Source: Pyrinomonadaceae bacterium (GTDB lineage: Bacteria; Acidobacteriota; Blastocatellia; Pyrinomonadales; Pyrinomonadaceae). Taken from it: a stretch of 64,000 bases of DNA. Numbering within the stretch: the stretch's first letter is position 1; every line of letters starts with the position of its first letter. The notes below the pieces were generated by a model. That model had not been told where the DNA came from. It did not search any database and saw only the letters and a list, made by a program, of their open reading frames with translations. Positions 1,401 to 56,876 of this stretch are shown piece by piece. Where the stretch lies: assembly GCA_035327545.1 (NCBI GenBank), contig DAOLDE010000007.1, forward strand, positions 90,286-154,285. The letters are read 5' to 3'. A program made the translations under genes and the position numbers.

Positions 1401-1415
1401 TCGAGGAAAATTGAA

Positions 1416-1964: not shown

Positions 1965-1974
1965 TGGAGCAATT

Positions 1975-3057: not shown

Positions 3058-3073
3058 CGGATGTGCGAGGCGG

Positions 3074-7855: not shown

Positions 7856-8029
7856 TTTAGATCGACGGAGGTAGCATCGGCTCTGAGCATACTGGATAAG
7901 GTCAGAAAATGGATCGACGGGGAATCGGCCGAGGCCGTTCTCGAAGAAGCGGCCCGCGACGCGCAGGTCAAACCTCGCAGCAGGGCTGAAGAGTTCATCG
8001 TCAAGATCGCACGTGCCGTCGAAGCGGTC

Positions 8030-38092: not shown

Positions 38093-38747
38093 CTGATGTC
38101 GTCGCGAACGTCATTGTTCGAGCATAGATCGGCTCGAGTCCGTCGTCGAAACTGAGTGATGCCTCGCCAATATAAATGGCCATATTGCGCCCTACGTCGA
38201 AAATGGCCGGGTCGTCTGAAAACTCATCACCTGCTGAAAGTAACGGCAGAACCAATGAATGGGCGAAAATGGGAGTCTCGCGTTTCGATCGCATCGATTC
38301 TACGAAATCGTCGCGATCGCCTGTGCCTAAAATTCCCTGATTTAGGGCATCACCGCTTGCGGGAAAGTACGTCCAGCAAAGTCCGTTCCGACCGATCGGG
38401 ATCGCGCAGATAGCTGCGAGACCGTTGCCGAACCGTGAATAAATTGCTTTCATCAGATCAATGCCGATACACGGAATTCCTCGGCCGCGCGAAAGGCCTA
38501 AAGCGGTTGCAAGGCCGACCCTGACTCCCGTATAACTCCCGGGACCCCGTGAGACAGCGACCCGACCGACCGCGTAAATATCCCACCCTCCGCTGTTCAG
38601 GAGATCCGCGATCGCAGGAAGCAATTTCTCTGAAGCCGCCAGACCGGGCTGACCGTACCAGGTCGCGAGCACGGACGATCCATCCATTAACGAAAGGCTC
38701 CCGTTCTCTATTCCCGATTCGATCGCCAAAGTGAGGGTTCCATTCAT
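38073..38747 (-). CDS. tsaB: tRNA threonylcarbamoyladenosine biosynthesis protein TsaB
   Basis: LAIESGIENGSLSL...VSRGPGSYTGVRVGLATALGL. Confidence 0.85.
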   Translation of the reverse strand: MNGTLTLAIESGIENGSLSLMDGSSVLATWYGQPGLAASEKLLPAIADLLNSGGWDIYAVGRVAVSRGPGSYTGVRVGLATALGLSRGRGIPCIGIDLMKAIYSRFGNGLAAICAIPIGRNGLCWTYFPASGDALNQGILGTGDRDDFVESMRSKRETPIFAHSLVLPLLSAGDEFSDDPAIFDVGRNMAIYIGEASLSFDDGLEPIYARTMTFATTSGENVVK

Positions 38748-39634
38748 CTTTTTCGCGGGTTTAGCATATGAACAATTCCCCTGAGCGAAGGAAAGATCCT
38801 ATCGCTAAAGCTTCCAAACTGATAGGGCAATCTTGAACCCTCCCAGATATCGCCTTCCCTGTTGATCGTCGATTGAATTGGATTAGGAGGGATTCGTCGG
38901 CGAATCTGGTTCAAAAGTTCCTTCGGTTCCGTGAGACAAAGATGAAGCGAACGATAGGGACTCTTCCGGTTCCATTCACGTTCGACCGTCTTCGTCAGCC
39001 ATAAAGGAAGGTTTTTGGCACGATCCTCGAAGGGTAGCTCCTCGATCGAAAGGCCAAGATACTTGTGTGCGATTCCGATCGCTGCCTCGATCCAGCCTTG
39101 TCTCCTTTCTGACACGACCCTCAGGCATCTGTCCCAATCAAAATCTGGACCCCGATTAGCCACGGCATAATAAATGTCCCAAAGCCGATGTCTGCGGATC
39201 CCGCCATCACTAAGCCAGTGAACCGATAGAATTCGGAGATTGTCTTCCTCAGAAAGTATCCTGATCGGAGATCCGTTTAGATCGACTACTTGTGAATCAG
39301 CAAAAAGCTCAGCCCACGATCTTGTATCTAGATGTCTGAGTTCTCGATGAAGATCGATACCAAATTTATCCGCTTCCTGAGATGATAAAACCGCTTTTGC
39401 TCCCGCGTATTCGCGCTCGGCAACTGCGAGATCAACGTCGTCGTAAAATCGAGGAGCGGCCGGTGGATATTTTCTTGCTGCCGCCCAGCCCTTGATCAGG
39501 ATAGGTTCGATCCCGGCGGAGCGAAGCATCCGGGTCGCTTCGGTAGCTTCAAACTCCAGCCGGCGATTGTAGATCTGTCTCCATCGCGTATCCGTAACGG
39601 GTTCAATATCGTGGTCGTCACTCACTGGCGTCAA
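38744..39634 (-). CDS. uncharacterised nucleotidyltransferase family protein (PF14907-like)
   Basis: ILIKGWAAARKYPPAAPRFYDDVDLAV motif. TTG start. The stop overlaps the tsaB start (ATGA). Confidence 0.65.
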   Translation of the reverse strand: MTPVSDDHDIEPVTDTRWRQIYNRRLEFEATEATRMLRSAGIEPILIKGWAAARKYPPAAPRFYDDVDLAVAEREYAGAKAVLSSQEADKFGIDLHRELRHLDTRSWAELFADSQVVDLNGSPIRILSEEDNLRILSVHWLSDGGIRRHRLWDIYYAVANRGPDFDWDRCLRVVSERRQGWIEAAIGIAHKYLGLSIEELPFEDRAKNLPLWLTKTVEREWNRKSPYRSLHLCLTEPKELLNQIRRRIPPNPIQSTINREGDIWEGSRLPYQFGSFSDRIFPSLRGIVHMLNPRKR

Positions 39635-39669
39635 AGGAAAAGAGCAGCAAACATAAATGCCTGCTGCTC
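39632..39669 (-). terminator. hairpin + U-tract between the PqqD-fusion gene and the nucleotidyltransferase (attenuator/partial terminator)
   Basis: Minus strand GAGCAGCA-12 nt-TGCTGCTC followed by TTTTCCTTTG. The U-tract runs into the TTG start at 39634. Confidence 0.5.
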
Positions 39670-39695
39670 AATATTGGATCGAGAACAACTGGGAC

Positions 39696-40181
39696 CTATG
39701 GCCGACACAATCCTGTACTGTTGCAAGTCGTCGACGGACAGTCCAGATTTGGGGCCGCCTGGCAAGCGAGATCACTGACACAGTTACAGGATGTCGATGC
39801 CATGGCCGTAGGCGGAGCAACAAGCGAAGCGATCACCGGCAATGCCACCATCGAGGTTAATCCGATCTTTTTGATCACGTCACGCCGACTCATGCCATTA
39901 AGCTGAGCCTCGACGGCCTTTTCCAGCAGATCGTTCTCGTTAAGTTGATCGATGGCGAGCCAAACTAGGTCGTCCGATACCTTTTCACCAGCTTGGGAAC
40001 TTACGAATTCGGCTATCTCAGAAACGTTCCGACTTCCGTTGCACGCCTGCCAAACGTAAGCCGCAGTCTTGTTCAAACAGTGGGCTTTGTTGGTCCCCAT
40101 ATCGTAAACCAACAACTCGTCAAGCGCTTCCTGGATGACCAGTCCCGTTTTGCGGGCTGCGGGGTTAAGCGGTTTGTTCAT
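39696..40181 (-). CDS. PqqD-family (RRE) domain protein fused to a Tat-signal-like hydrophobic segment and a six-Cys C-terminal peptide
   Basis: PqqD-like LVIQEALDELLVYDMGTNKAHCLNKTAAYVWQACNGSRNVSEIAEFV...LVWLAIDQLNENDLL, then SRRDVIKKIGLTSMVALPVIASLVAPPTAMA, then STSCNCVSDLACQAAPNLDCPSTTCNSTGLCRP. ATG 40181 has a GGAGGAG RBS; the ORF-track start 40193 is TTG. Confidence 0.7.
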   Translation of the reverse strand: MNKPLNPAARKTGLVIQEALDELLVYDMGTNKAHCLNKTAAYVWQACNGSRNVSEIAEFVSSQAGEKVSDDLVWLAIDQLNENDLLEKAVEAQLNGMSRRDVIKKIGLTSMVALPVIASLVAPPTAMASTSCNCVSDLACQAAPNLDCPSTTCNSTGLCRP

Positions 40182-40216
40182 CTTCTCCTCCAATCAAATA
40201 CCTAACTCTAATAGAG

Positions 40217-41068
40217 TTACGTCATTTTAGCTAATTTAGTATGTTTGTCAAAAAAATCCAACAGGAATTTAGCGAATTTTCCTGCCTCGCCGCGAGGCGA
40301 CCTTACCATTATTGCACGTTGTGCGACTAAATCCAATACTTTCAGTGAAAAAGCCGGATCCTGCCGCATTGTCAACGTGTTTGGGATAAGCTCCATGATC
40401 CCGGCTCCAACCCCTAGCTCTTCCGGCATCCATTTGCTGCCTTTCGAAAAGCGAGTGAACAACACCATTCCGACCGGAATACAATGCCTGCCCTGAACTC
40501 CCCCAAGGGCCTCAGCAGAAACGCCCGTCTCACCGTTATCGCCGGCAAGACGTAGTGATATCAAACGCGGAAACGGTCCCACTTTCCCGGTTTTGTCTAT
40601 CACGGCGTATTCATCGGAGTAATACTCTGCCCCGTTTCTCACGAGTTCTGCCGTCAATGTCGACTTACCCGCAAAGCTGACTCCTGGAAGAACTATCGCT
40701 TTGCCGTTCCAGCCCACAACACCAGCGTGAATGAACACGCGATGCTTGGTATGTTCGGCTACCTCAAGTCGCAGTTTATGGTTCAAAAACTGCAGGAAAT
40801 GCCGTTCGGAAGGCCCGGAGTCCAGCAAGATCCCGTTTCGATATAAAGCCAAATTCCCATTCTCCGAAACCAGCCTGAACCGATGTTCAATGCCCGCATT
40901 CGGGTCAGCAACAATTCTCGCCCTGCCGCCAAACGCCGCTTTGACCAATTTCTGCGACTTTTCAAGCAAAGTTTCGTGGTCGCTTTCCAAACTGATAGGA
41001 ACGCCAAAGGCCACGAAAGAGAACCGCCTGCCAAAATCACGAGGTGCCGATGGTCGCGCTTTCGACAT
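40217..41068 (-). CDS. HPr kinase/phosphorylase-related kinase (C-terminal kinase domain only)
   Basis: IHAGVVGWNGKAIVLPGVSFAGKSTLTAELVRNGAEYYSDEYAVID is an HprK-type P-loop. Start taken at MSKARPS (41068). The ORF-track N-extension to 41434 overlaps the upstream gene and is Arg/Ser-rich junk. Confidence 0.75.
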   Translation of the reverse strand: MSKARPSAPRDFGRRFSFVAFGVPISLESDHETLLEKSQKLVKAAFGGRARIVADPNAGIEHRFRLVSENGNLALYRNGILLDSGPSERHFLQFLNHKLRLEVAEHTKHRVFIHAGVVGWNGKAIVLPGVSFAGKSTLTAELVRNGAEYYSDEYAVIDKTGKVGPFPRLISLRLAGDNGETGVSAEALGGVQGRHCIPVGMVLFTRFSKGSKWMPEELGVGAGIMELIPNTLTMRQDPAFSLKVLDLVAQRAIMVRSPRGEAGKFAKFLLDFFDKHTKLAKMT

Positions 41069-41124: not shown

Positions 41125-42165
41125 TCAACGCTTTTTTCTCAAGCCACAGAATAAGACGACTGTAGAGGTAACAACCATGCTTATTAAAAGAATAAAGTAT
41201 GAGCCTGTTCCGAGAGATCGGTGGGCCAGGAAACTTGCTGCGACTAGAGCCCCTGCGCCAGCGAAAAGCAGGGTTACCGAAGCATGGCTTGTTCCGGCTA
41301 TCACCATCCGCTGATAGAGGTGCTGACGGTGCGCGATCCAGACCTTTTCTCCCTTTTTGAGCCGCGCAGCTAATGTGAACAGGGTATCGAAAAGAAAGAG
41401 CCAGACGAATGAAACTCCGGCAGCCAACAACCATCCCGATCCTTCCTCATTGGAACTACGGGTCATTACAGGAAGCACTGCAAATGAAAAGCCCAAAAAG
41501 GCGCTTCCGACGTCGCCCATGAATATTCTGGCAGGGCTCCAGTTGTGAACCAGAAATCCCAAGCAGGAAAAGGCGAGTATCGCTCCTACGATGGTGATGA
41601 CGGGGTCGCCAAGCAAAAAGCCAAGAATTGCCCACGAAATGCCTGCTACCACCCCCTGGGATCCGGCGATGCCGTCGATCCCATCCATAAAGTTGTAGGC
41701 ATTGATCATCCAGACTATCCATAAAAAGGTGATCAGCACGCCAAGCCAGCCCAAGTGGAGCATATTGCTGCTGAATGGTATCGGCAGAGACGTAAAATGG
41801 CCGATTCCGACAATGACAAGTACAGCAGCGCCCGCTTGAGCAAAAAGGCGGAGAAGCGGGGGAACCGTATGTTTGTCGTCCAGCCAGCTTATACCCGCAA
41901 CAACGCCGCCGCCGACAACGAACCACCAACTCGCGTGAAAGCCGATCGCATGTGCCGAGGCTACATACAGACCTAGACAGACCAGGACTATCACGACCCC
42001 GCCGCCCCGGGGAACAGGCGATGAGTGTGAACTGCGCTCGTTGGGGTGGTCAAGCAACCCCGTCCTTGCGGCATAGCGACGGAACAAAGCCACTCCAAAA
42101 GCAGTAGCCAGGAACGACACAATGGCCACTATCGGCAGGCCTATCGATATAAGATCACCGAACAT
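41125..42165 (-). CDS. undecaprenyl-phosphate HexNAc-1-phosphate transferase (WecA/WbpL, MraY-like family)
   Basis: About 10 TM segments. NAYNFMDGIDGIAG and FMGDVGS motifs. Confidence 0.8.
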   Translation of the reverse strand: MFGDLISIGLPIVAIVSFLATAFGVALFRRYAARTGLLDHPNERSSHSSPVPRGGGVVIVLVCLGLYVASAHAIGFHASWWFVVGGGVVAGISWLDDKHTVPPLLRLFAQAGAAVLVIVGIGHFTSLPIPFSSNMLHLGWLGVLITFLWIVWMINAYNFMDGIDGIAGSQGVVAGISWAILGFLLGDPVITIVGAILAFSCLGFLVHNWSPARIFMGDVGSAFLGFSFAVLPVMTRSSNEEGSGWLLAAGVSFVWLFLFDTLFTLAARLKKGEKVWIAHRQHLYQRMVIAGTSHASVTLLFAGAGALVAASFLAHRSLGTGSYFILLISMVVTSTVVLFCGLRKKR

Positions 42166-42177
42166 TTGTGGTTCTTT

Positions 42178-43401
42178 CTAAAGGAGAGCGCTACGGTATC
42201 TTTCGATCGCGACATCGATCGAATATTTGGATTCGGCAGCACGTCTTGCTCTGAGGCCCTTTTCTTTGAGATCGACATCTTCCACCGCCTCTCTGATCGC
42301 CTTGACCAGTCCGTGCGCATCACCCGGCGGAACTATCCATCCGACGCTTTCCTCCTCGATGACTCGAGCTAGTTCCGACCCATCCTCCGTGATGCCGATC
42401 ATCGGCTTGCCGGCCGCAAGGATGTTGTAAGTTCGGCTCGGCATCGAAACGCCCAGCATCTTTGGGACCAGCGAGATCAGGGCAACATCGCATCCATTCA
42501 AGAAATCCTTCTGTTCGCTTCGCGGCCTAGGTTCCAAAAACGTCACATTTGACAGAGAGAGCTTTCTTACTTTGTTCTGGGCAAGCCTTTTCTTCATTCC
42601 AGATCCCAAAAATACGAAATGAAACCGTTTTTCGTTTCTGAGCAGATCCGCTGCGCCAATGACCGACTCAATGTCGTTTGGCGGCCCCATGTTGCCCGCA
42701 TACAACATGATGAACTTCTCCTTTAGCTCAAGTTCCTCCAGGAGTCTGTTCGTTTCACGCGGCATCGGCTCGACCGATTCGAGTTCTGCCCAGTTCGGAA
42801 TGACGGCTATCGGCACGTCGAGGCCAGCGCTTTTCTTTCCTACAAGTTCCAACATATCGCGTCCCACAACGATGATCCGCTCAGCGTGTTTGTAAAGCCA
42901 TCTGTTAAAGATCGTCAGGATCCTTGCTATCAGCGAGTTTTCACTTATTTTACCGGCAGCGACCAAGATCTCCGGGTAGTTATCGTGGATCAGCAACGTA
43001 TAACCTGCGCCTCGCAGTAATGAAGCGGCAGCAGCGACAAAAGGCATGGCCGGAGGGTTAGTTACAACAAGGACTTTGTCGTGCCTTTCGAGTTTTCTTG
43101 CCAGCAAAAATAATATTGTCGTACTGAGGGTGAACATATTGACGAGCCGATAGAAAATAACGTTCTTGTCGAGCCGCGAACCCGCGACGCGAAAGATCCG
43201 CACGCCATTTCTTTCTTCCCGTTTTGGTGCGATCGTACCACGGGCAGAATAATTCGGCTGGCCGCTCACCGCCATTACCTCAAACTCGTCGGTAAGGGCT
43301 TCGGCAATACGCGTCAGATAGTACCCAGTGGACGTTTCTTCCGGGTAATACAACTCTGAAATGACCCAGAGTCGTGCTTTACTCATTTCCTTTGAGGACA
43401 T
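42178..43401 (-). CDS. glycosyltransferase family 4, WbuB-like
   Basis: LWVISELYYPEETSTGYYLTRIAEAL N-terminus is typical of WbuB-type L-FucNAc transferases. C-terminal E-x7-E region. Confidence 0.75.
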   Translation of the reverse strand: MSSKEMSKARLWVISELYYPEETSTGYYLTRIAEALTDEFEVMAVSGQPNYSARGTIAPKREERNGVRIFRVAGSRLDKNVIFYRLVNMFTLSTTILFLLARKLERHDKVLVVTNPPAMPFVAAAASLLRGAGYTLLIHDNYPEILVAAGKISENSLIARILTIFNRWLYKHAERIIVVGRDMLELVGKKSAGLDVPIAVIPNWAELESVEPMPRETNRLLEELELKEKFIMLYAGNMGPPNDIESVIGAADLLRNEKRFHFVFLGSGMKKRLAQNKVRKLSLSNVTFLEPRPRSEQKDFLNGCDVALISLVPKMLGVSMPSRTYNILAAGKPMIGITEDGSELARVIEEESVGWIVPPGDAHGLVKAIREAVEDVDLKEKGLRARRAAESKYSIDVAIERYRSALL

Positions 43402-43598
43402 TCAGCTTTGCACAGCATTTCAAACGTCCGAATAAGAATTTCAGTCCGGAAACGATCGATCGACTCGATCCCCTTTACGCGTTGCCTGCGCGCGAGATCC
43501 GAAATGATTATGAAAGACGTTTGCGGTCGTTTTCTCATGCGGTCGAAAAGAATCTACAATACAACAATCCTCGACTCATCTGCTATTCTTGGCCAGTT

Positions 43599-44711
43599 AT
43601 GAAGGTCTTCTTTCCGGTAGAGGTCTTTTTTCCTTCTCAAGCGGGCGGGCCCGCAAACACTGTCTATTGGCTTGCAAAGAATCTTTCAGAACGAGGGTTT
43701 GAGCCGATTGTCGTTTCCACGGACAAGGGCCTGCATGGGTCAGTGAAACTCAACAAATGGACACACATGGATGCCGGGCGTACCATATATGTAAAGACAA
43801 GATTTCTCCACTTCCCCATTGGCCAAACGATCATGGCACTTGCGAATTTTCTTCGTGCCGACGTGATTCACCTATCTTCCGTGTTTTTCCCGACGGCTTT
43901 TATCACGGGACTGGCCGCGCGCCTTTTTCAAAAACCGCTGGCATGGTCGCCGAGAGGCGAGTTGTCCGATTACTCTCTGAACTATTCCGGCAAGCGAAAG
44001 CGGCCGATCCTTTTTATGATCAGGAAATTGATCGGCCGATATCCTCTCTTTCATTCGACCTCAGAAGAAGAGACGCAAGATATTCGTCGGGTCTTTGGTG
44101 CCAGCGCACGGGTCGTTATGATACCCAACTTTGTCGAACTGGAACCGGCACTTTCACGCGAACCTGGTGACTATTTTCTCTCTATTGGGAGACTTCATCC
44201 GAAAAAAGCCGTTGATAATCTGATCAGGGCTGTCGCCGGAGCAGAAGCATTCCTGAAGTCAAACCTTCAGCTATGGATCGCGGGCAAAGGCAAACCCGAA
44301 TATGAGGCAAAGCTTCGCTCCTTGGTCACGGAACTTGGACTTGAGGAGAAGATCCGATTTCTCGGGCAGGTGGAAGGGGCGGCGAAGCACCAGATCCTTG
44401 CGAACGCCAAATTCACCTTTATGCCGTCCCATTCGGAAAACTTCGGAATTGTAGTGCTGGAATCGCTTGCCCAGGGAACACCAGTTGTGGCTTCGCATCA
44501 CACGCCCTGGGAGTCGCTGGAAAAAGAAAAGGTCGGCTTTTCAACGGGAAATTCACCGGAAGAGCTGACTGCGGCGATAGAACGGGTTCTGACGCTCCAC
44601 GACGAAGAATACGAAGCATTTCGGAAACGAGGTAAGGAATATGTCAGGCGCGAGTTCGACATCCGGGACAATATGGACAAGTGGCTCGATTTCTATGAGC
44701 GGTTGAGGTGA
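43599..44711 (+). CDS. glycosyltransferase family 4
   Basis: MKVFFPVEVFFPSQAGGPANTVYWLAKNL...PSHSENFGIVVLESLAQGTPVV (GT4 EX7E). ATG 43599 is preferred to 43374. Confidence 0.8.
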   Translation: MKVFFPVEVFFPSQAGGPANTVYWLAKNLSERGFEPIVVSTDKGLHGSVKLNKWTHMDAGRTIYVKTRFLHFPIGQTIMALANFLRADVIHLSSVFFPTAFITGLAARLFQKPLAWSPRGELSDYSLNYSGKRKRPILFMIRKLIGRYPLFHSTSEEETQDIRRVFGASARVVMIPNFVELEPALSREPGDYFLSIGRLHPKKAVDNLIRAVAGAEAFLKSNLQLWIAGKGKPEYEAKLRSLVTELGLEEKIRFLGQVEGAAKHQILANAKFTFMPSHSENFGIVVLESLAQGTPVVASHHTPWESLEKEKVGFSTGNSPEELTAAIERVLTLHDEEYEAFRKRGKEYVRREFDIRDNMDKWLDFYERLR

Positions 44712-44721
44712 AGGCTCTAGG

Positions 44722-45822
44722 CTAATTGGCGTGCCTTCGCACGCTGGTGTGTCCAAGAACGATCTTTGCGACGGTTTGCGAAACGTGAGTTTCCATATAT
44801 TCACGGGGTGGAACCCAGTCGGGCGGATGCGACAATGCTAAAGAAGTCGACCGCTCTATCGCTTCCGGATCGCTGCCGCTGAGGATGTTACTCCCGCACT
44901 CTACGGTCTCGGGACGTTCAGTCACGTCGCGAAGCGTAACATTAGGCACTCGAAGGATCGCACACTCCTCCTGTACCGTGCCGCTGTCGGTCAGTACTGC
45001 AAGCGCATTCTTTTCAAGCTTAATGAAATCTATGAATCCAAGGGGATCGAGCAGCATTATGCGTTCAGGGTTGACGACGAACCCAAATTCGGACAGCCGC
45101 GACGCGGTTCGGGGATGGACACTGACGAGCACTTTCTTATCGAACTTGACCGACAGCCTAGACAAACCCTCAAAGATCATGGCAAGGCGGTCGCGTTCGT
45201 TAGTGTTCTCAGCACGGTGAAGTGTTACGAGGAAAAATTCATATTTTCTGATACCGAATTTTTCTAACGCGTTACTTGCCTCGATCTTCGCCTCCCAAAT
45301 GGTCAGCACTTCAGCTATCGGATTTCCCGTTACAAAAATACGCTCTTTCTCGATCCCTTCGGCCAGGAGATTCGCACGGCTTCTTTCGGTATATGGCAAG
45401 AGGATCGTGCTGGAGTGGTCGATTATCCTTCTGTTAACCTCTTCCGGAACCCTGTCGTCATAGCATCGGTTCCCCGCCTCCATATGATAGACCGGAATAC
45501 CGCGACGGGCGGCGACGATCGCGGACAACGCGCTGTTAGTATCGCCCAGTATGAGTATTCTTTCGGGTTTGCGGGTGCTCAGGACTTCATCGATCCGTGT
45601 GATTATTTGACCCGCCTGCTCGCCGAAATGGTTTGACCGGATCCCAAGGTGCTCGTCCGGCTGACGGACCTCAAGCTCTTGAAAGAATATGTCACTCAGG
45701 CTCTGTTCGTAATTCTGTCCCGTGTGGACCATCAGGTGGTCGCAATGCTGATCGAGGATCTTCATTACGGCGGATAGCCGAATTATCTCGGGTCTCGTCC
45801 CGAAGATCGTCATGACTTTCAT
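44722..45822 (-). CDS. non-hydrolysing UDP-HexNAc 2-epimerase (WecB/FnlC/CapG family)
   Basis: MKVMTIFGTRPEIIRLSAV...LGDTNSAL...TDSGTVQEE. Confidence 0.85.
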   Translation of the reverse strand: MKVMTIFGTRPEIIRLSAVMKILDQHCDHLMVHTGQNYEQSLSDIFFQELEVRQPDEHLGIRSNHFGEQAGQIITRIDEVLSTRKPERILILGDTNSALSAIVAARRGIPVYHMEAGNRCYDDRVPEEVNRRIIDHSSTILLPYTERSRANLLAEGIEKERIFVTGNPIAEVLTIWEAKIEASNALEKFGIRKYEFFLVTLHRAENTNERDRLAMIFEGLSRLSVKFDKKVLVSVHPRTASRLSEFGFVVNPERIMLLDPLGFIDFIKLEKNALAVLTDSGTVQEECAILRVPNVTLRDVTERPETVECGSNILSGSDPEAIERSTSLALSHPPDWVPPREYMETHVSQTVAKIVLGHTSVRRHAN

Positions 45823-45848
45823 AGATTCCCAGGTGATGGCTCAATCGA

Positions 45849-46904
45849 TCAAACGGACGCGAACCGATGGATCTCTGCCGACGAAGCTGCGAGCAGCTCA
45901 CGAAGCTGCTCGACCGTAAGATTATTATTCTTCGACGAATATTCTTCAGAAAGTGCGGGTTCGGTGTCGATATCGGATCTCAGCTCAGGCAGCACTGGCT
46001 GGATCGCAAAATATTCGCCTTCCGATCTGGTACGGAAGCACTCTTCTTCAGAAACCATGATCTCGTGGATCTTTTCGCCGGGCCTGATGCCGGTAAAATT
46101 TATAGGTAGCTCCTCTTCGCCCATCATCGCTCTGGCAAGATCGATGATCTTTGCCGATGGGACCTGAGGCACAAATGTCTCACCCGTTCGGCCTGCTTCC
46201 AGCACCGCAAAAACCGTGTCAACAGCACGGTCAAGGCTGAGCAAGAACCGTGTCATTTCAGGCAGCGTAACAGTCAGCGGCCGTCGGTTCCTGATCTGCT
46301 CGGCGAATAGCGGGACGATCGAGCCGCGCGATGCGATCACATTTCCATAACGAACACAAACAAAACGCGTATCAGGCAAACGGCGGTTAGCTTCGACGAA
46401 GACGCGTTCCTGCAAGGCTTTGGTCATTCCCATGACGTTGATCGGCTTACAAGCCTTGTCGGTCGAAATGCCTACCACGGCCTCGATCTTATGGCCATTC
46501 TCACGAATTGCCCGTACAACATTTTGAGCCCCGCCGATATTCGTTTGAACTGCCTCAAAAGGAAAATACTCGCATGACGGCACTTGCTTGAGCGCGGCCG
46601 CATGAAAAACTATATCTGTGTCGCGAAGAGCAGCGCTGACCGCGCCCAGGTCTCGAACGTCACCGATAGTGAAGTCAAGGATGTCTTCAGCCTCGTGATA
46701 AATTACCTCGTCCGTTGCGACCGACCGGTTCTGGAGATCCAGTCGCATATAGTGTTGTTTCGCCTCGTCGCGAGAAAACACCGTGATCCGCTCAGGCAGG
46801 CCCTTTTCACCTGTAAGCAGCCGTCGGACAAGGGTCTTTCCAAGCGAGCCGGTCCCGCCTGTCACCAGGATCTTTTTACCTTTTAATGATTCGATCTTCT
46901 CCAT
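45849..46904 (-). CDS. UDP-GlcNAc 4,6-dehydratase/5-epimerase (FnlA/CapE/WbjB-like, CapD family)
   Basis: KKILVTGGTGSLGKTLVRRLL...HAAALKQVP...STDKACKPINVMGMTKAL. ATG 46904 is preferred to 46955. Confidence 0.85.
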   Translation of the reverse strand: MEKIESLKGKKILVTGGTGSLGKTLVRRLLTGEKGLPERITVFSRDEAKQHYMRLDLQNRSVATDEVIYHEAEDILDFTIGDVRDLGAVSAALRDTDIVFHAAALKQVPSCEYFPFEAVQTNIGGAQNVVRAIRENGHKIEAVVGISTDKACKPINVMGMTKALQERVFVEANRRLPDTRFVCVRYGNVIASRGSIVPLFAEQIRNRRPLTVTLPEMTRFLLSLDRAVDTVFAVLEAGRTGETFVPQVPSAKIIDLARAMMGEEELPINFTGIRPGEKIHEIMVSEEECFRTRSEGEYFAIQPVLPELRSDIDTEPALSEEYSSKNNNLTVEQLRELLAASSAEIHRFASV

Positions 46905-47770
46905 TCTTTGTAGGGCGTCGGGTCCGATGCCATTAAGTCGATCATCTTCTCCCACGATAAGGGTGCGTAGGAAGTTGCCGCTCTGAATCGATCCGAATTC
47001 AAGCTTCGGTCTATAACTACGTTCTCCGTCCTTTCAATTGAGACCGGAAGATCGAATTTATCCCGGATCAATTCAAGAAGCCGGAATTTGTCGATCGGAG
47101 CGCTCGAAACATGGTACAAGCCGTTCAATTCAGGGTGCTTAACGATCAAGTCCCTGATTATATCGGCGAATACGATGGTTGGAAAGCCTGAGAACACGGC
47201 CCGTGCATAGCCGCTTACTCTCGATCCGCTGTTTGCGAAGAACCACTCTACAAGTCCCTGCGACGTTGCAAGCTCACGGCCAATTATCGAAGTTCGAATT
47301 GTAAGAACGTTGTCTGAAATGATCTCGCCTAGTGCCTTGCTGATCCCATATAGATCTCTGGCGTTCGGTTCGTCCGTCTCAGTGTATCCGCCGCGAATCC
47401 CGTCGAAAACACAATCAGTGCTGATCGTGATTAGTCTAAAACCAAGTTCTTGCCCGAGACGTGCGAGTCGATGCGGAAAGATCGAGTTAACGGTCAATGC
47501 GGAGATCACATCGTTCGAATTTGACGCTTGTTTAACGATACCAACAGCATTTACCACAACGTCCGGCAAGACGTCCCGCAATGTTGATTCAACTGATCCT
47601 TCATTCGAAACATCTACATTCGGCACGATCCTTGAGTCGTCAACAAAGCCGAATCTTGTGATCTGAGAAGCATCATTACGGACGGTTCCCCAAACCTCAT
47701 GGTCATTCCCGAGTGTTTGCACGATCTTGTGCCCGAGCATACCGGCTGTACCAAAAACGAGTACTCGCAT
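46883..47770 (-). CDS. RmlD-like SDR 4-reductase (FnlB/WbvR-type candidate)
   Basis: MRVLVFGTAGMLGHKIV Rossmann N-terminus, ISTDCVFDG, YGISKALGE (YxxxK). 295 aa. Confidence 0.75.
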   Translation of the reverse strand: MRVLVFGTAGMLGHKIVQTLGNDHEVWGTVRNDASQITRFGFVDDSRIVPNVDVSNEGSVESTLRDVLPDVVVNAVGIVKQASNSNDVISALTVNSIFPHRLARLGQELGFRLITISTDCVFDGIRGGYTETDEPNARDLYGISKALGEIISDNVLTIRTSIIGRELATSQGLVEWFFANSGSRVSGYARAVFSGFPTIVFADIIRDLIVKHPELNGLYHVSSAPIDKFRLLELIRDKFDLPVSIERTENVVIDRSLNSDRFRAATSYAPLSWEKMIDLMASDPTPYKEWRRSNH

Positions 47771-47894
47771 TAGAAATAGAGATGTATTTGCGTTTGAGTC
47801 AAACGTTCCGAATGATTGATGAAAACAATTTCGGGCTGTTAAGGTTGCGGCTGCTCGAAGGTATCAGCCGACACGCACCTGATTTCTGCCGCGA

Positions 47895-48899
47895 CTACGT
47901 GCCTTGATCTTCAGCAGCCAACATCCGATCGACGAGCTCACACCATATATGTGCCACGGTTATGTGCATTTCCTGGATCCGGGCTGTCCTGTCAGAAGGC
48001 ACCATTAATGACGCGTCCGACAACGAAGCAAGCTTCTTTCCCATTGAACCGGTCATTGCGATCACTTTACACCCGCGCTGTCGTGCTTCCATCACGGCAG
48101 AAATAACATTGGGCGAATTTCCACTTGTACTTATCGCGATCAAACAGTCTCCTTGGTTCGCTAATGCCTCCACCTGGCGTGCGAATACCCGGTCGAAACC
48201 ATAGTCATTGGCAAGGGCCGTAAGTGCGGAGGTGTCCGTGGTAAACGCAATGGCCGGCAATGCTCTCCGTTCCGTCTCGTATCTGCCGACAAATTCGGCA
48301 GCAATATGTTGAGCATCAGCTGCACTTCCGCCGTTGCCACATATGAGTATCTTCCCGCCAGAGCGAACAGTTTCCGTGATCATCGATCCACACTCGGTGA
48401 TCGTATCAACAAGGCCTTTCATCACGAGATCGGCTACCTCGAGATGCTGACGAAGCGAGTCCTCGATCACCCCGGAACTCTGTTCCACAGTTTGGGGCAC
48501 CCTTCTAATGCGTTCGAGAACCGAGGAACTTGAGTGGCCATCCACAAGCGGGATCGAGACAACCTTTCCCCCGTTTGCCTCGACGATATCGGAGCCAATT
48601 ATCTCGCCTGGTTTCCAGTCGCCCCCTTTCACCAGCACATCAGGCTTCAAGTGCCGTATTAACTTCTCAGGCGTAAGCTCTTCGAAAATAATGACTTCAT
48701 CAACCGACGAGAGTGCTAGCAATACCGCTTTACGGTCTTCCGCGGTCTGATAAGGGCGATCAGGGCCTTTGATCTTTCTTACGGACTCATCGCTGTTCAA
48801 TCCGACAATGAGCCGGGTGCCCAAAGACCTGGCCCGGTCGAGGAGCTCGACATGGCCGGGATGGAGAATATCAAAGCAGCCGTTCGTAAATACGATCAT
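47895..48899 (-). CDS. fusion protein: heptose-1-phosphate adenylyltransferase (HldC/RfaE-II) + phosphoheptose isomerase (GmhA, SIS domain)
   Basis: The N-half NGCFDILHPGHVELLDRARSLG...LVKGGDW is cytidylyltransferase-like. The C-half ILICGNGGSAADAQHIAAEFVGRY...ISTSGNSPNVI...IAMTG is GmhA/SIS-like. Confidence 0.8.
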   Translation of the reverse strand: MIVFTNGCFDILHPGHVELLDRARSLGTRLIVGLNSDESVRKIKGPDRPYQTAEDRKAVLLALSSVDEVIIFEELTPEKLIRHLKPDVLVKGGDWKPGEIIGSDIVEANGGKVVSIPLVDGHSSSSVLERIRRVPQTVEQSSGVIEDSLRQHLEVADLVMKGLVDTITECGSMITETVRSGGKILICGNGGSAADAQHIAAEFVGRYETERRALPAIAFTTDTSALTALANDYGFDRVFARQVEALANQGDCLIAISTSGNSPNVISAVMEARQRGCKVIAMTGSMGKKLASLSDASLMVPSDRTARIQEMHITVAHIWCELVDRMLAAEDQGT

Positions 48900-48938
48900 A
48901 AAGTCATGGACCGAAAGTCAGAAATTTCGTATATGTCC

Positions 48939-50474
48939 TTAGTTCGGCGTGTCCGTGCGTTGAAAGCCGGACAATCTCGCCACCACGCCGACGATCAGCA
49001 GGCCGACGGCTGCCGTTAGGCCGACCTTAAAGAGAAATGGTATCAGCAACCCGTAAAATGCCTCATAAGAGATCGCCATTAAAAGCATAAAGTACATGGT
49101 GGCACGCCAGATCGTCCGCGGTTGATCTTCTATGAGCGATCTGTAAATGAAACGAATTATTATGCCGAACAAGAACATACCGATCGGAACACCTACGGGT
49201 CCGTAATTTCTCAACAGGTCTCCGATGGGTGTGATAGCGAATGAATTGTCGCCGTAATCGAAATATAGGTCGCTATATTTTCGCGGCTCGGAGGCGATCG
49301 GTTTTTCGTCCCACAAGATCCTTGGAATAAAAAAGGTGCTCAGATCTTTCCAGATATTATTGTCCAGACCATAGCTCTCTTCATATGGTGCCAGCTGTTC
49401 ATAATTGGAAACGACCACAGCAACTGAGCTGAGTGTGTCCAGGCGCTCGGCAAGCCCGAGCAATGCCATTTGCAGGCTATTCCCAACGTCGAACTTGCCG
49501 ACCTGATCGATCGTCTCGAAAATATTCTCCGTGTACTGCTCGATCGACGTTTGGGCCTCTGTGCCCTTTATATGGCGAAAGGTCGTGCCGTAGATCATTC
49601 CCGCGATCAGACAAACTGAGAGTATTATTCCCGCGAAGACCGTACGGCGAAAATTCAATCTTCTCCCTGAAAGCAAGAAGGCGAGTATGACGATGATGAA
49701 GACTTGAAGCAGCGAAGCGCGATTTCCTGAGATCAGGGCCTTCCCTATGGTAGCGAGTAACAGCAGGGAGACGAGAACGACTGCACGAACATCAAAAGTT
49801 CCACGCTTAAAGATCACGTACCAAAGTATGAACGATCCCTGCATCCAGAAAAGCGTCGTCAGAAAAACGATTCCGTCGTAAGACTCGATCGCGTCCGAAC
49901 GCTGATACCCAATGACACCAATAATAAGTGCTCCGATGGTATTGAAGGTGCCCAGAATCAGCAGAAAAAGGCCCGGCATGAGCATGACCGACGAATCAAA
50001 GTCGCGTCGTGGAATTATCCTGCTTACCGCGGCTCCGGCCCTCACCCCAAACGGCGTGAAATAACCTGCTGCGAGCCCGGCAAAACCGAGCATGATCAGT
50101 GCGATCGTATATGGCAGATTAAACTCGGCATCCTGGATAAAGGTGAGGTAATAGGGATCAGACCATCCGGCAGTCAACATCAATCCGCCGATAACAAATG
50201 CCGGGAAGAAGTATGACCAGGTCGCAAAGACAAGAGGATCATAAAGAGTCAATCGCCCGCGATAATGAAGGATCAAAGTCGGAGTTGCCAGGAGTGCCAG
50301 CAGGCCGAAGATCCACGGTAACAGATAGACAAAGGGTAAGGATGCGGTCAGATCGCTGCTGAGAAGGCCACCAACGACACCCAGAAACGCCGCGATCCCC
50401 ATCATCAACGCCCCCCCAAGCAGAAATCGACGCTGAGCATCCGCAGTATCTGTTTTTCTTAACGCTGTCGCCAT
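48939..50474 (-). CDS. polytopic membrane protein, probable oligosaccharide repeat-unit polymerase (Wzy-like)
   Basis: At least 10 hydrophobic segments and location inside the polysaccharide locus. No sequence motif verified. Confidence 0.45.
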   Translation of the reverse strand: MATALRKTDTADAQRRFLLGGALMMGIAAFLGVVGGLLSSDLTASLPFVYLLPWIFGLLALLATPTLILHYRGRLTLYDPLVFATWSYFFPAFVIGGLMLTAGWSDPYYLTFIQDAEFNLPYTIALIMLGFAGLAAGYFTPFGVRAGAAVSRIIPRRDFDSSVMLMPGLFLLILGTFNTIGALIIGVIGYQRSDAIESYDGIVFLTTLFWMQGSFILWYVIFKRGTFDVRAVVLVSLLLLATIGKALISGNRASLLQVFIIVILAFLLSGRRLNFRRTVFAGIILSVCLIAGMIYGTTFRHIKGTEAQTSIEQYTENIFETIDQVGKFDVGNSLQMALLGLAERLDTLSSVAVVVSNYEQLAPYEESYGLDNNIWKDLSTFFIPRILWDEKPIASEPRKYSDLYFDYGDNSFAITPIGDLLRNYGPVGVPIGMFLFGIIIRFIYRSLIEDQPRTIWRATMYFMLLMAISYEAFYGLLIPFLFKVGLTAAVGLLIVGVVARLSGFQRTDTPN

Positions 50475-50523
50475 TAAATCGATCGACTATATTCCGTCCG
50501 CCAAGCCTTGTTTTGCCGCTTTT

Positions 50524-52080
50524 TTAATCCGAACGAATGATCTCCCAAGCTTCCCGCTCGCGTCCATCGTAGGGGGTAAAAGAACGAACTCGTTGATAGT
50601 TAGCGGTTAAGAAAAGATAAAGCGGCTTAAGCCGTTCATCGTCGGCCATTCGCTCCATTTCTGGTGTCCAGGCTCCATCCCAAATGATAAAACGTGGCCT
50701 TTCCCTTTTCAAATCTTCTATTGCCCATGCCACATGGTGCGGTGGAGAATATCCTGTGTTCAAGAGTATCGACATTCTCGTCGGATTTTGCAGCGCAAGT
50801 GGAAAATTGACGTGACAAACATATACTTCAAATACCTTATCACCTGGAGCTGAGTTCGCAAGAAGCCATTCGTAGCGTTCGCCTATCACCCGCGAGAGGA
50901 ATACTATGCGTCCGCTGGGCGTGTCGAGCGCCATCGTATCCCAAGCAAATTGGGTGCGGATCCCGAGGGAGAGTCCGAAGACCATTAAGACAACTATTGC
51001 CAATTTTATGCGGGCGCCTGTCAGAAATTCGCTTTGCCACAATAGCCAAACGAACACTATCAACGCAGGAAGCGATATCTGATAAAGCCTCATTACGTTC
51101 GGTCCCGTGGTTCCGAGAACCAGAAAGAGGCCGATCAAAATGGTGAGTAGCACCGGGGCGGTTCGTTCGAACCTTTCTGCGCGTCTCTTTGTCCAGACAT
51201 ACGCCAAGGATACGACATAGACCAGTGGAATAAGCAGCGAATAGAAGATCGTAACTGCGAGCATCGTAAAACCTGCTGCTCGCAGCTTAGAGATCGTCGA
51301 GAAATATGTTCGCCAACTATTTGTGTAAGGATCCTGAGAATAGGCCGAGATGAATAGTATCGTGTCCTCAATGAACTTAGATAAGCCGACCGGATATACG
51401 TATGGAGCAAGAAGGAAGATCAAAGTCACGCCGAAGGCACCGACAAGAACCACCCATGAGCAAAGAAGCCGCTTCCAGTTGCGGTCCTTGAACCCGACTT
51501 CTATGAGTAGAAAAAGACCAACGGCAGCTAGTACAAGGAGCCCGCGCTGCTGGGTGAAAAAACTTGCGAGTGCGCACGCGACCCCGGCCAGGGCGATCGT
51601 CGGATAGCTTCGAACTTTTAGAAGGAGAAAAAGTGCCAGCCAAGCAAAAATAGGACTCATCATTCGGTGTTCTGCATCGACACCGAACCACCGGAATCCG
51701 AAGAAAATGTAAATAGCTGAGGGCAAGTAGGCCGCGAATGAATCAGCTATCACCCTCCTCGAGATCACAACTCCTAGATATGCAGAGATCATTCCGTGGA
51801 GAATGATGAACGCACTGATCAACCAATATTTTGCCCCGAATATTTTGATCAGCAGTGCGAAAATGCTGATCGAACCTGGGAAAATAAACTCCCAAAAATC
51901 CTGATAGATAGCTTCGCCGCCTGCGACCCGGCTGGCCTCGTAGATCATCTTTATGTGATCGGCCTCGTAATAGATCGGAGTCGTGGGAAAGATAAAGACC
52001 TGAAGGTAAAGAAAACAAAAACATGCCGCATAGAAGATGGCCTTTAAGGTCAAGGAAGGGCTTGTTTCGCTGATCGCCAT
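50524..52080 (-). CDS. polytopic membrane protein with C-terminal soluble domain (possible GT-C-type glycosyltransferase)
   Basis: About 11 hydrophobic segments, then a ~110-aa hydrophilic tail. Family not recognised. Confidence 0.4.
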   Translation of the reverse strand: MAISETSPSLTLKAIFYAACFCFLYLQVFIFPTTPIYYEADHIKMIYEASRVAGGEAIYQDFWEFIFPGSISIFALLIKIFGAKYWLISAFIILHGMISAYLGVVISRRVIADSFAAYLPSAIYIFFGFRWFGVDAEHRMMSPIFAWLALFLLLKVRSYPTIALAGVACALASFFTQQRGLLVLAAVGLFLLIEVGFKDRNWKRLLCSWVVLVGAFGVTLIFLLAPYVYPVGLSKFIEDTILFISAYSQDPYTNSWRTYFSTISKLRAAGFTMLAVTIFYSLLIPLVYVVSLAYVWTKRRAERFERTAPVLLTILIGLFLVLGTTGPNVMRLYQISLPALIVFVWLLWQSEFLTGARIKLAIVVLMVFGLSLGIRTQFAWDTMALDTPSGRIVFLSRVIGERYEWLLANSAPGDKVFEVYVCHVNFPLALQNPTRMSILLNTGYSPPHHVAWAIEDLKRERPRFIIWDGAWTPEMERMADDERLKPLYLFLTANYQRVRSFTPYDGREREAWEIIRSD

Positions 52081-52180
52081 CTTGAATGAGACCTGATCAG
52101 AACATCGGTACGACCGAGCTCACGATCTGCAAGTACTCTTGTATTGACAGTTGTCGGAAGGGTTAAACTCTTTGAATTTT

Positions 52181-53194
52181 TCAAACGGAAACAGCATCGA
52201 TCTTTGCTGCCTGGCCGGGATTCTCGTATGCCGCCCTCACTTGTTCCTCGATCCACTGATAAGTTACAGCAAGGCCGTCCTCTAGTGTGACGGATGGTTC
52301 CCAGCCGAGCACACTTCGCAGCAAGGAGTTGTCCGAATTTCGACCGCGCACGCCTTGAGGCCCATTCACATGTTTCTTCACTATGCTTATCCCGGCGATC
52401 TTAGCTATCCTATCCGCAAGCTGATTGATAGATATCATTACGTCCTGACCTAGATTTATCGGGTCCGTATGGTCTGAACGCATGATCCGATAGATACCCT
52501 CGACACAATCGCTTACGTAGCAAAACGATCGAGTCTGTTCGCCGTCGCCCCATATTTCGATCTCGCTTTCGCCCGCGAGTTTTGCCGCAGCGATCTTACG
52601 GCACAGTGCTGCAGGCACCTTTTCCCGGCCGCCTTCCCACGTCCCTAGCTCGCCGAAGATGTTGTGGAATCTGACGACGCGAGTGTCAAGCCCAAAATCG
52701 TCGCGATAATGCGTACACATCCGTTCGGCCATCAGCTTTTCCCAACCGTAAGCATCCTGCGGAAAGGCTGGGTAGGCATCTTCCTCTTTTAGGGGACGAA
52801 CATCTTCCGATTCCTGCAGATGAAGCGGATAGATGCAGGCCGAGCTGGTGTACAAAAATCGCTGAACGCCGTTCACTCGAGCGGCCTCGATGGTGTGGAT
52901 GTCGATGAGCGAGTTATTTCGAAGGATCTCCGCATGGTGCTGTGAAATATAACCCATGCCCCCCATGTCGGCCGCTAGCGCATAAACCTCTTCGACTCCT
53001 GAAACTGCCGAAAGACAATTTTCCGGATCGCGAAGATCCAGGAGAAGGAATTCATCGGCGTTGGAATCCGAGAATTCCGGATACTTAAGATCAATGCCTC
53101 GTACCCAATAATCCTTGTTCTTGAGAAATGTGACAAGATGGTTTCCGATGAACCCCCCGGCTCCGGTGACGGCCACCCTAGTTTTCAGATCCAT
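52181..53194 (-). CDS. GDP-mannose 3,5-epimerase-like NAD-dependent epimerase
   Basis: VTGAGGFIGNHL...LAADMGGMGYI...ARVNGVQRFLYTSSACIYP...PQDAYGWEKL...RFHNIFGELGTWEGGREKVPAALCRK parallels plant and bacterial GME from memory. ATG 53194 avoids overlap with the Wzc gene. Confidence 0.7.
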   Translation of the reverse strand: MDLKTRVAVTGAGGFIGNHLVTFLKNKDYWVRGIDLKYPEFSDSNADEFLLLDLRDPENCLSAVSGVEEVYALAADMGGMGYISQHHAEILRNNSLIDIHTIEAARVNGVQRFLYTSSACIYPLHLQESEDVRPLKEEDAYPAFPQDAYGWEKLMAERMCTHYRDDFGLDTRVVRFHNIFGELGTWEGGREKVPAALCRKIAAAKLAGESEIEIWGDGEQTRSFCYVSDCVEGIYRIMRSDHTDPINLGQDVMISINQLADRIAKIAGISIVKKHVNGPQGVRGRNSDNSLLRSVLGWEPSVTLEDGLAVTYQWIEEQVRAAYENPGQAAKIDAVSV

Positions 53195-53219
53195 ATAATT
53201 CGGTAGTGGGATAGGCTTC

Positions 53220-55703: not shown

Positions 55704-55715
55704 ATGGTTCCGGCA

Positions 55716-56663: not shown

Positions 56664-56876
56664 TTCCAGACTCCTTAAAATTTTCTTAAAGCCAATAATT
56701 TTAAGGCTTTGATAGCCGTGTAGGGCTAAAAGTTGTTTACAATATCGGCAAATCGCCACCCGGGGACCGAACAAAAAAATAGTTTAGCAAACCCCGCAAC
56801 CTTTGAAAACCAAAGAATTTAATTCTATGGGGGATTTAAGATAGACTCAACAAGGGCCTCAAATATACAAACTGCG

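Follow-up and report, generated by a model that had tools for sequence, protein, structure and literature searches.

In lasso-peptide clusters an HprK-type kinase phosphorylates a Ser of the precursor and a nucleotidyltransferase then adds hexose to the phosphate (PMC8498205), and the characterised kinases of this kind require a C-terminal Ser (PMC8498205). The paeninodin (PadeK) and pseudomycoidin (PsmK/PsmN) clusters hold three families side by side, namely a PqqD-like recognition element (RRE) of peptides made by the ribosome and modified post-translationally (RiPPs), known there as B1, an HPr-kinase homologue and a nucleotidyltransferase. We find the same three families in three adjacent minus-strand open reading frames (ORFs) of a 64-kb Pyrinomonadaceae window, by which we mean the whole stretch of DNA that was analysed. 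The RRE, a stand-alone protein in the lasso clusters, is here fused to its putative substrate in a 161-aa chain, which we call the fusion protein and which consists of an RRE domain, a twin-arginine leader and a Cys-rich tail. The locus further differs from lasso clusters in that it has no cyclase, B2 protease or ABC exporter, in that the tail has no C-terminal Ser and instead holds a disulfide-type Cys core behind a secretion signal, and in that the kinase is optional across the family. An earlier note on this DNA had described the three ORFs, the P-loop, the leader, the 33-aa tail with its Cys spacing and an internal ATG (39891-39893), and we find all of these where it had placed them; its observation is confirmed and its interpretation is partly supported. 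The features of the locus are as follows.

38744-39634, minus strand: gene of the PF14907 (Pol-beta-type) nucleotidyltransferase, 296 aa, the most widespread enzymatic partner
39642-39669, minus strand: intrinsic-terminator-like hairpin with a 12-bp stem and a T-run, between the fusion and transferase genes
39696-40181, minus strand: fusion gene, 161 aa, RRE-leader-core, stop codon included
39699-39797, minus strand: hypervariable six-cysteine core, residues 129-161 (33 aa)
39789-39791, minus strand: Ser131, the sole universally conserved hydroxyl in the putatively exported part, just before the first Cys
39798-39896, minus strand: twin-arginine leader or signal, residues 96-128, ending in an A-x-A signal-peptidase-type site
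39936-40142, minus strand: RRE (PqqD-like winged-helix) domain, residues ~14-82, from the PF05402 match and the AlphaFold2 (AF2) fold
40185-40191, minus strand: ribosome-binding site GGAGGAG of the fusion gene, read from the sequence
40217-41068, minus strand: HprK/PEPCK-fold P-loop kinase-like gene, 283 aa, a clade-specific partner
40224-40251, minus strand: sigma-70-like promoter TTGACA-16-TAAAAT (11/12), within the 3'-terminal part of the kinase gene and ahead of the fusion gene

Other described systems share parts of this layout. An HprK-like P-loop protein is paired with a PqqD-like protein, as here, in the TIGRFAM HPr-rel-A system (TIGR04352 and TIGR04353) and in SynChlorMet ScmC/ScmD. 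The earlier note had pointed to such a catalogued neighbourhood, and TIGR04352 and TIGR04353 are indeed the best NCBIfam matches of the window kinase and of the fusion protein, both below cutoff. The scores lie so far below (62.5 bits against 200, and 15.5 bits against 35 for TIGR04353, a PqqD-family chaperone model) that the proteins are not members, and the PqqD protein of HPr-rel-A and ScmD is free-standing, ~75-85 aa long and without a signal or Cys tail. Bufferins and other RiPPs have Cys-containing precursors that carry a general-secretion (Sec) signal as leader, are aided by an RRE partner, and rely on the cell's general machinery for export and cleavage (PMC11626156, PMC12710340, PMC13056109). 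The use of a signal as leader is shared between the fusion protein and the bufferins (DUF2282 precursor, MNIO, DUF2063 RRE partner) and lipoprotein-pathway RiPPs. Those systems have a separate RRE protein, an N-terminal Sec-type or lipoprotein-type signal and the class-defining MNIO, whereas the fusion protein has its RRE upstream of a twin-arginine signal within one chain, and the enzymes here are only a Pol-beta-type transferase, a kinase or a C25 peptidase; MNIO (DUF692), DUF2063 and DUF2282 were found neither in the window nor in the annotated related loci. NHLP/Nif11 precursors combine a long, conserved, protein-like leader with short hypervariable Cys-rich cores, often in tandem, a layout like that of the fusion protein. 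Their leaders, however, are not RREs, carry a GG motif for a PCAT exporter and stand beside lanthionine synthetases or radical-SAM enzymes, none of which we see here. To our knowledge RREs have so far been described as free proteins or enzyme domains, and we know of none inside the substrate itself; in the literature we found no description of the fusion family, nor of an RRE in one chain with a signal and a core. The system is a variant built of known parts (RRE, HprK-like kinase, PF14907 transferase and twin-arginine signal), widespread in Acidobacteriota and undescribed in the searchable literature.

The earlier note had called the module an orphan, which it is not, as it belongs to a very large syntenic family inside an envelope-polysaccharide cluster. 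Homologues of the fusion protein form 1436 clusters at 90% identity and 5776 representatives at 50% identity, 3344 of which score at or below 1e-10. The named homologues are all from Acidobacteriota (Pyrinomonadaceae/Blastocatellia), and an identical protein in a Pyrinomonadaceae metagenome-assembled genome (MAG) is annotated only as 'PqqD family protein'. When one genome per species was scanned, relatives emerged in 275 species, the best 80 being Pyrinomonadaceae, Blastocatellia or 'Chloracidobacterium' MAGs. All of the best 150 of the 5776 representatives have a PqqD-like domain, a leader with Arg-Arg (RR) and A-x-A, and a Cys-rich C-terminus, and in their leaders G-x-S-R-R-x-[VI]-[IL]-[KR]-[KR]-x-G is followed by a hydrophobic stretch and then by A-P-x-x-A-x-A. 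The arrangement lies far outside what chance would give: the full architecture with its tail recurs across the 1436 clusters and in these 150 representatives, and the three genes adjoin one another in essentially all related genomes with enough flank. We ruled out a gene-fusion or frameshift artefact, the single ORF being kept in more than 1400 clusters.

The leader is the most conserved region of the fusion protein. In the window it carries SRRDVIKKIGLTSMVALPVIASLVAPPTAMA, as first noted, with the pattern G-x-S-R-R-D-V-I-K-K-I-G-L...A-L-P...A-P-P-T-A-M-A. Across 118 closer homologues, pairwise identity is 0.80 in the leader, 0.72 in the PqqD domain, 0.51 in the tail and 0.41 at non-Cys tail positions. 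Upon anchoring 148 of the top 150 representatives on RR and comparing them ungapped, we observed RR in 148 of 148 and no indel from RR to A-x-A. Counting from RR, Gly at +8 and Pro at +16 are each present in 142, and around the site, position -1 (+29) is Ala in 129, position -3 (+27) is A, V, I, S or T in 130 and position -5 (+24) is Pro in 139. The family motif reads S-R-R-[ED]-[VAMI]-[IVL]-[KR]-[KR], with A-x-A 27-29 residues past RR. The RR-to-site distance is fixed at 30 residues, and the predicted site is of the canonical signal-peptidase-I type with a helix-breaking Pro at -5. Signals of the twin-arginine translocation (Tat) pathway have the pattern [ST]-R-R-x-hydrophobic-hydrophobic-K, a moderate h-region and A-x-A, and the leader shares all of these, with a motif of the [ST]-R-R-x-F-L-K type, an h-region that is short and rich in Gly, Ser, Thr and Pro, and an A-x-A c-region; Pfam TAT_signal gave no match on the isolated leader. 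An idea from Tat proofreading by redox enzyme maturation proteins (REMPs) of the TorD/DmsD type is that the signal could stay bound to a peptide-binding domain while the cargo is being readied. In contrast to those systems, the signal here begins at residue 96, with the twin-arginine motif starting at residue 98, behind a folded domain and away from the N-terminus, and the chaperone-like domain is covalently attached and is an RRE, not a TorD fold.

The earlier proposal that the internal ATG might yield a 65-aa prepeptide falls, since homologues have L, Q, I, M and others at residue 97 and the start codon is unconserved. We rejected a stand-alone Tat prepeptide from 39891-39893 on account of this unconserved Met97 and of the strong ribosome-binding site at the true start. 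Separately, the family-consensus hydrophobic segment gave a weak match to TIGR04200 (PExPT-CTERM target of exosortase XrtJ; E=0.0075, far below cutoff), which is probably compositional.

The tail of the window protein has 6 Cys and 9 Ser/Thr, with the spacing CxC-x5-C-x7-C-x4-C-x5-C. Past the predicted cleavage site, the Cys count is even in 117 of 117 close homologues (6 or 8) and in 138 of 147 diverse representatives, in which it is mostly 6 to 18; even counts are the pattern of all-paired, disulfide-bonded extracytoplasmic domains. Tail length ranges from 17 to 174 residues among the best 150 representatives, and the tails are made up of hydrophilic residues (C, N, S, P, G, A, T), few of them charged. 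The tails of a distant subfamily follow C-x(5-6)-C-x(6-7)-CC-x(3-4)-C-x(3-5)-C and share the C-C-CC-C-C framework of knottins (inhibitor cystine knots), from which the CxC-C-C-C-C tail of the window differs. Of the conserved Cys pattern considered in the earlier note, the Cys-rich tail in all of the best 150 and the even counts stood. When the family profile was compared with the PDB, spider toxins and squash trypsin inhibitors were matched non-significantly (E 0.5-8). The last tail residue in close homologues is P, A, V, N or T. Ser or Thr occupies the Ser131 column in at least 90% of all groups, and the further universal hydroxyls of the fusion protein are Thr39 and Ser119.

The N-terminal domain, predicted to be cytoplasmic, matches PF05402 (PqqD) at residues 23-63 in the Pfam scan with 30.0 bits (gathering score 23.4; E=6.5e-7), and a precomputed PF05402 match is present on every listed fusion homologue. 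An AF2 model built from a 118-sequence alignment (mean predicted local distance difference test, pLDDT, 72) places strands at 14-19, 22-27 and 32-36, followed by helices at 38-46, 53-64 and 70-82, and at low confidence a leader helix at 99-109 and a short beta-strand at 118-121. The best PDB matches of this model in Foldseek are TbiB1 with leader (5v1u, 5v1v) and 6jx3, all of them lasso B1 structures determined together with the leader peptide, with target template-modelling (TM) scores of 0.73-0.77 and root-mean-square deviations of 2.4-2.9, and the RRE domains of ThcOx, TigE, PqqD, CteB, SuiB and MibB rank later. The modelled fold is closest to the leader-binding lasso B1 proteins. We rejected a ToxR/CadC-type membrane-bound winged-helix regulator: neither Trans_reg_C nor another DNA-binding family was matched in Pfam or NCBIfam, DNA-binding winged-helix proteins appear among the structural and profile matches only at E>0.5, and the best structural matches are RREs. 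The domain also has a conserved set of H34, C35, C47 and D48, in which C47 is invariant and the others are invariant or nearly so depending on the sequence set. Ordinary PqqD and RRE proteins are not known to us to carry such a His-Cys...Cys-Asp set, which may form a metal or redox site facing the cytoplasm.

The kinase, annotated in the public record as 'hypothetical protein', carries the P-loop VLPGVSFAGKSTLTAELVRNG. TIGR04352 (HprK_rel_A) aligns to its residues 93-173 (E=3.3e-17), below the cutoff as given above, and Pfam Hpr_kinase_C reaches only E=0.043 on the window kinase and matches 4 of 54 kinase homologues at E<0.01 (best E=5.5e-4); several homologues give weak matches to PF27840 (ScmC). 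H114, G116, S131, G134, K135 and D152 are invariant across the 54 homologues, and the H-A-G...S-x-x-G-K-S/T...S-D-E invariants, D152 lying in S-D-E, correspond to HprK active-site elements. A PDB search with the single sequence or with a 54-sequence profile found nothing for the kinase. Its AF2 model (pLDDT 89), on the other hand, is matched in Foldseek at E<=1e-3 by ATP-dependent phosphoenolpyruvate carboxykinases (PEPCK) and HprK/P among the matches listed, which points to an HprK/PEPCK-type P-loop fold, so the family is placed by predicted fold and not by curated score. The transferase carries ILIKGWAAARKYPPAAPRFYDDVDLAV and matches PF14907 (NTP_transf_5) with 66.6 bits against a gathering score of 31.2; its motif K-G-W...Y-D-D-V-D-L, as read from the sequence, fits the Pol-beta-type G...D-x-D catalytic pattern, and it has neither an NCBIfam model match nor a PDB relative by sequence. 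Of the three family assignments made earlier, PqqD and PF14907 thus score above their gathering thresholds, and that of the kinase holds by fold while failing the TIGRFAM cutoff. No hydrophobic segment is evident when the kinase and transferase sequences are read by eye, and both are probably cytoplasmic.

The trio is tightly packed, with gaps of 56, 35 and 61 nt and a 4-nt overlap with tsaB, and stands at the end of a long minus-strand Wza/Wzc/WecA envelope-polysaccharide cluster. Related loci have the gene order wecA, kinase, fusion, transferase, tsaB, rimI. Adjacency was counted only in loci with enough flanking sequence, and among these in the window's clade, the kinase is directly upstream of the fusion gene in 70 of 70 and the transferase directly downstream in 63 of 65. 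The co-occurrence of the trio, which the earlier note had suggested looking for, is found in essentially all related genomes with enough flank. At four loci the trio lies in another neighbourhood, behind a WbuB-like glycosyltransferase and an epimerase, which indicates that it moves as a unit and remains beside glycan genes. Of 75 genome loci, 7 have two or three tandem fusion copies, as do several metagenome loci, each copy having its own RRE, leader and a different tail. No conserved small ORF was found in the 35-, 61- and 56-nt gaps or among the called genes of related loci. As the earlier note had stated, the region has no core RiPP enzyme of the kinds sought: lasso cyclase or protease, YcaO, LanM/LanB/LanC and RiPP-type radical-SAM proteins are absent from Pfam scans that took in, with few exceptions, the window's ORFs of ~180 aa or more across 64 kb, and lasso cyclase or protease, YcaO, LanM and RiPP-type radical-SAM proteins are absent from the annotated related loci as well. 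The sole radical-SAM protein in the window is a housekeeping MiaB homologue.

Loci of a distant clade were collected in a metagenome scan seeded with a 7-sequence alignment of the distant subfamily. Here the transferase is present in 34 of 41 loci, a ~1000-aa secreted Peptidase_C25 protein in 17 of 20 and the kinase in only 10 of 37. The kinase, earlier treated as a core part, is dispensable in this clade, where the transferase and the C25 peptidase are commoner. The cassette runs wecA, Wzy_C, TPR, ~215-aa protein, TPR/CBM, kinase (optional), fusion, transferase, C25, and possible roles for the C25 protein are those of a maturation protease or a PorU-like sortase. We observe the cassette at L085 (2626-12680) and also at L087, L090, L091, L094, L095, L098, L099, L101, L129, L148 and L164; its Wzy_C protein is O-antigen-ligase-like and its TPR protein has 650 aa. 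The partner sets are transferase with C25 (8 loci), kinase, transferase and C25 (3), C25 alone (2), kinase with C25 (1), transferase alone (1) and none (1). Given these variable sets, the RRE-leader-tail protein is the only universal element and the enzymes are modular; those that are adjacent are of tailoring type only (kinase, nucleotidyltransferase, C25 peptidase), in varying combination. One variant, P0184 (302 aa; L168, 5335-9151), keeps the RRE and RR, and has no A-x-A and a tail of ~170 aa with a single Cys; its gene comes directly after DsbB and DsbA genes and before those of He_PIG and beta-helix proteins. Two related MAGs have a transferase gene that is broken into two overlapping ORFs, and one of the two has a broken kinase gene as well (L035 8559-9418; L050 7122-7917 and 8695-9547), which reflects either gene decay or indel errors of assembly or sequencing.

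The fusion gene also has expression signals of its own. A promoter of at least 10/12 lies upstream of the fusion gene in 40 of 83 orthologous loci, compared with 0 of 75 for the kinase, 0 of 72 for the transferase and 0 of 60 for wecA. Terminator-like hairpins, whose stem sequences differ between loci, follow the fusion gene in 53 of 84 cases, the kinase in 24 of 98, the transferase in 10 of 111 and wecA in 4 of 77, and the 80 nt past the fusion gene average -25.6 kcal/mol, against -14.7 to -20.1 past neighbouring genes. Separate strong transcription of a small gene with attenuated read-through is usual for precursor or structural peptides and unusual for accessory chaperones. In the window, both promoter hexamers fall within the last kinase codons (...F-F-D-K-H-T-K-L-A-K-M-T-stop; 40217-40251, minus strand), and the conserved C-terminal 'KLAKMT' of the kinase may be doubly constrained, by the protein and by the -10 box.

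We favour, with confidence that is about evenly balanced, the reading that the 161-aa chain is the self-chaperoned precursor from which a small, exported peptide rich in disulfides is made. Conserved leader, hypervariable core, tandem copies and own expression signals together make up the leader-core layout of a RiPP precursor. Of the two alternatives offered earlier, an exported self-recognising precursor is preferred to a single-pass membrane protein because of the invariant RR, the A-x-A, the even Cys counts, the hypervariable tail, the tandem copies and the gene's own promoter and terminator. In the proposed course of events, the N-terminal RRE would stay in the cytoplasm, and the 30-residue fixed-length leader would have two uses, one in export as a signal of Tat type (or a signal-anchor), the other as a conserved element by which partner enzymes take hold. 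The PF14907 transferase, and in the window's clade the HprK-like kinase, would be recruited through RRE and leader and, ahead of export, would attach a group linked through phosphate (phospho, nucleotidyl or sugar-phosphate), the likeliest modified residue being the conserved Ser131 beside the first Cys. Such modification is plausible because the same enzyme families phosphorylate and then hexosylate a precursor Ser in lasso clusters, and it would account for the signal being Tat-type and not Sec-type. The core would then be translocated, signal peptidase I would cut after A-x-A (Ala128), and the periplasmic core would fold into a three-disulfide mini-protein. With its own strong promoter and most transcripts presumably ending at the hairpin, more precursor than transferase would be produced. 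The peptide may act at, or be attached to, the cell-surface glycan layer, as is suggested by the position of the module at the end of the Wza/Wzc/WecA operon. A wider claim, namely that the protein founds a new, very large class of ribosomal peptides, mainly of soil Acidobacteriota, in which the leader holds its own RRE, a Pol-beta-type nucleotidyltransferase and in some lineages an HprK-like kinase or a C25 peptidase are recruited, and the Ser beside the first Cys is modified ahead of Tat export, cleavage, folding into a hypervariable knottin-like three-disulfide peptide and a role in, or coupling to, the polysaccharide envelope, is one that we put forward only tentatively.

Several points weigh against the precursor reading. 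We know of no characterised precursor that resembles a 161-aa protein with a folded N-terminal domain, and no class-defining RiPP enzyme, dedicated transporter or immunity gene was found nearby. Sec is the normal export route of disulfide-rich peptides, and it is unusual for a Tat signal to lie 95 residues from the N-terminus. With the full model length aligned, TIGR01409 (TAT_signal) reaches 14.6 bits where its cutoff is 16.7; the Tat assignment is partly supported, with a canonical and invariant motif on one side and, on the other, a sub-cutoff hidden-Markov-model score and an internal signal. The tails end without the C-terminal Ser needed by the known lasso kinases, and the paeninodin analogy drawn in the earlier note therefore does not extend to kinase specificity. 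Once clade was controlled for, no Ser/Thr column tracked the presence of the kinase. The kinase is missing from most distant loci and the copies at L124 and at L169, a long-tailed and solitary one, stand without any enzyme gene beside them, so it may be that the fusion protein is not what the enzymes act on. The extreme conservation of the hydrophobic segment could instead mark a permanent membrane helix with protein partners, and the proposal builds on steps of modification, cleavage and export that we infer.

In the search for new ribosomal natural products, RREs are the main handle that does not depend on class. If the precursor reading is true, leader, chaperone and core in one chain would be a new design principle, and RiPP-type recognition would be linked to the cell's general export systems, possibly to Tat. 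Acidobacteriota, an abundant and poorly studied soil phylum, would then contain disulfide-rich mini-proteins of hypervariable sequence by the thousands, and the uncharacterised PF14907 transferases and HprK-like kinases outside lasso clusters would gain a first testable substrate. The module's constant position as the last part of envelope-polysaccharide operons may hint at a connection between peptide and glycan.

The main rival, which we consider rather unlikely, is an uncleaved single-pass (N-in, C-out) membrane adaptor or sensor, whose RRE would tether the kinase and/or transferase to the inner membrane beside the WecA/Wzy glycan-assembly machinery while a tiny disulfide-locked ectodomain senses or contacts a periplasmic partner, the real substrates being glycan intermediates or another protein. 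A partnered helix is expected to be the most conserved part (here 0.80 identity without indels), the module usually lies in envelope-polysaccharide clusters in both clades (at loci with long flanks), and P0184 has a larger non-Cys C-terminal domain without A-x-A. Yet the A-x-A with Pro at -5 is conserved far beyond the needs of an anchor, the h-region is short and rich in small residues and Pro as described, and the ectodomain is hypervariable and anything from 17 to 174 aa long; there are also whole-gene tandem duplications, and a dedicated strong promoter and terminator favour an excess product over a stoichiometric scaffold. It is improbable, in our view, that the RRE instead acts in trans on a separate unannotated precursor or on a segment of the kinase, transferase or C25 peptidase, with the tail as an unrelated appendage. 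The characterised RREs do all bind a separate peptide (PMC7470986; structures 5v1u, 6jx3), and pairs of separate genes, one for an HprK-like and one for a PqqD-like protein, recur (TIGR04352/TIGR04353, ScmC/ScmD), to which the matches here are weak. But the related loci offer no conserved small ORF in gaps or called genes, each tandem copy duplicates RRE, leader and tail together, and the same-chain leader is the only strongly conserved peptide-like segment available.

The CxC motif and the 18% Cys content bring to mind metal-binding peptides, the RRE itself has the invariant H34-C35...C47-D48 set, and the tail might on these accounts be an unexported metallothionein-like or Zn-ribbon-like Cys cluster, cytoplasmic or membrane-proximal, with the hydrophobic segment peripheral or re-entrant. 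We regard this as very improbable in view of the strict even Cys parity across tails of 6 to 18 Cys, the canonical n-h-c signal with A-x-A, the knottin-like C-C-CC-C-C frameworks and the DsbB-DsbA genes adjoining one family member. That the locus is a decayed phosphorylated lasso-peptide cluster, its cyclase and protease having been lost, is scarcely credible: although the RRE is structurally nearest to lasso B1 proteins and the kinase and PF14907 transferase are known as lasso tailoring enzymes (PMC8498205), Asn-synthase-like and transglutaminase-like genes occur in none of ~170 Pfam-annotated loci, strong purifying selection acts over thousands of members, and there is neither a C-terminal Ser nor a lasso-type core.

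Upstream of the trio, the window holds the following genes of the polysaccharide cluster.

41125-42165, minus strand: WecA-like initiating transferase
43374-44711, opposite strand to the cluster: one of two GT4 glycosyltransferases in the cluster
44722-47770, minus strand: FnlABC-like sugar-nucleotide (UDP-sugar) enzymes
47895-48899: cytidylyltransferase-SIS fusion, in the polysaccharide cluster
48939-52080, minus strand: two polytopic membrane proteins with no Pfam match
53220-55703, minus strand: Wzc-type (Wzc-like tyrosine-kinase) co-polymerase
55716-56774, minus strand: Wza

The stretch 41125-56774 (minus strand) is a complete Wzx/Wzy-type envelope-polysaccharide cluster. Downstream of the trio come tsaB, rimI and a DUF465 gene, followed on the opposite strand by a PQQ-propeller protein, ssb, accA, dnaE and miaB. 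Elsewhere in the window, on the plus strand, a group of genes at 765-8863 opens with two type-IV-pilin-like proteins that have N-terminal methylation motifs (765-1400 and 1948-3057), followed by a 1012-aa protein without a Pfam match, a Ser/Thr protein kinase that includes an SH3 domain (6188-7855) and a protein with an FHA domain (8030-8863). Finally, a single 770-aa ORF at 19076-21388 (plus strand) has two LptF_LptG matches, which suggests a fused LptF-LptG lipopolysaccharide export permease.

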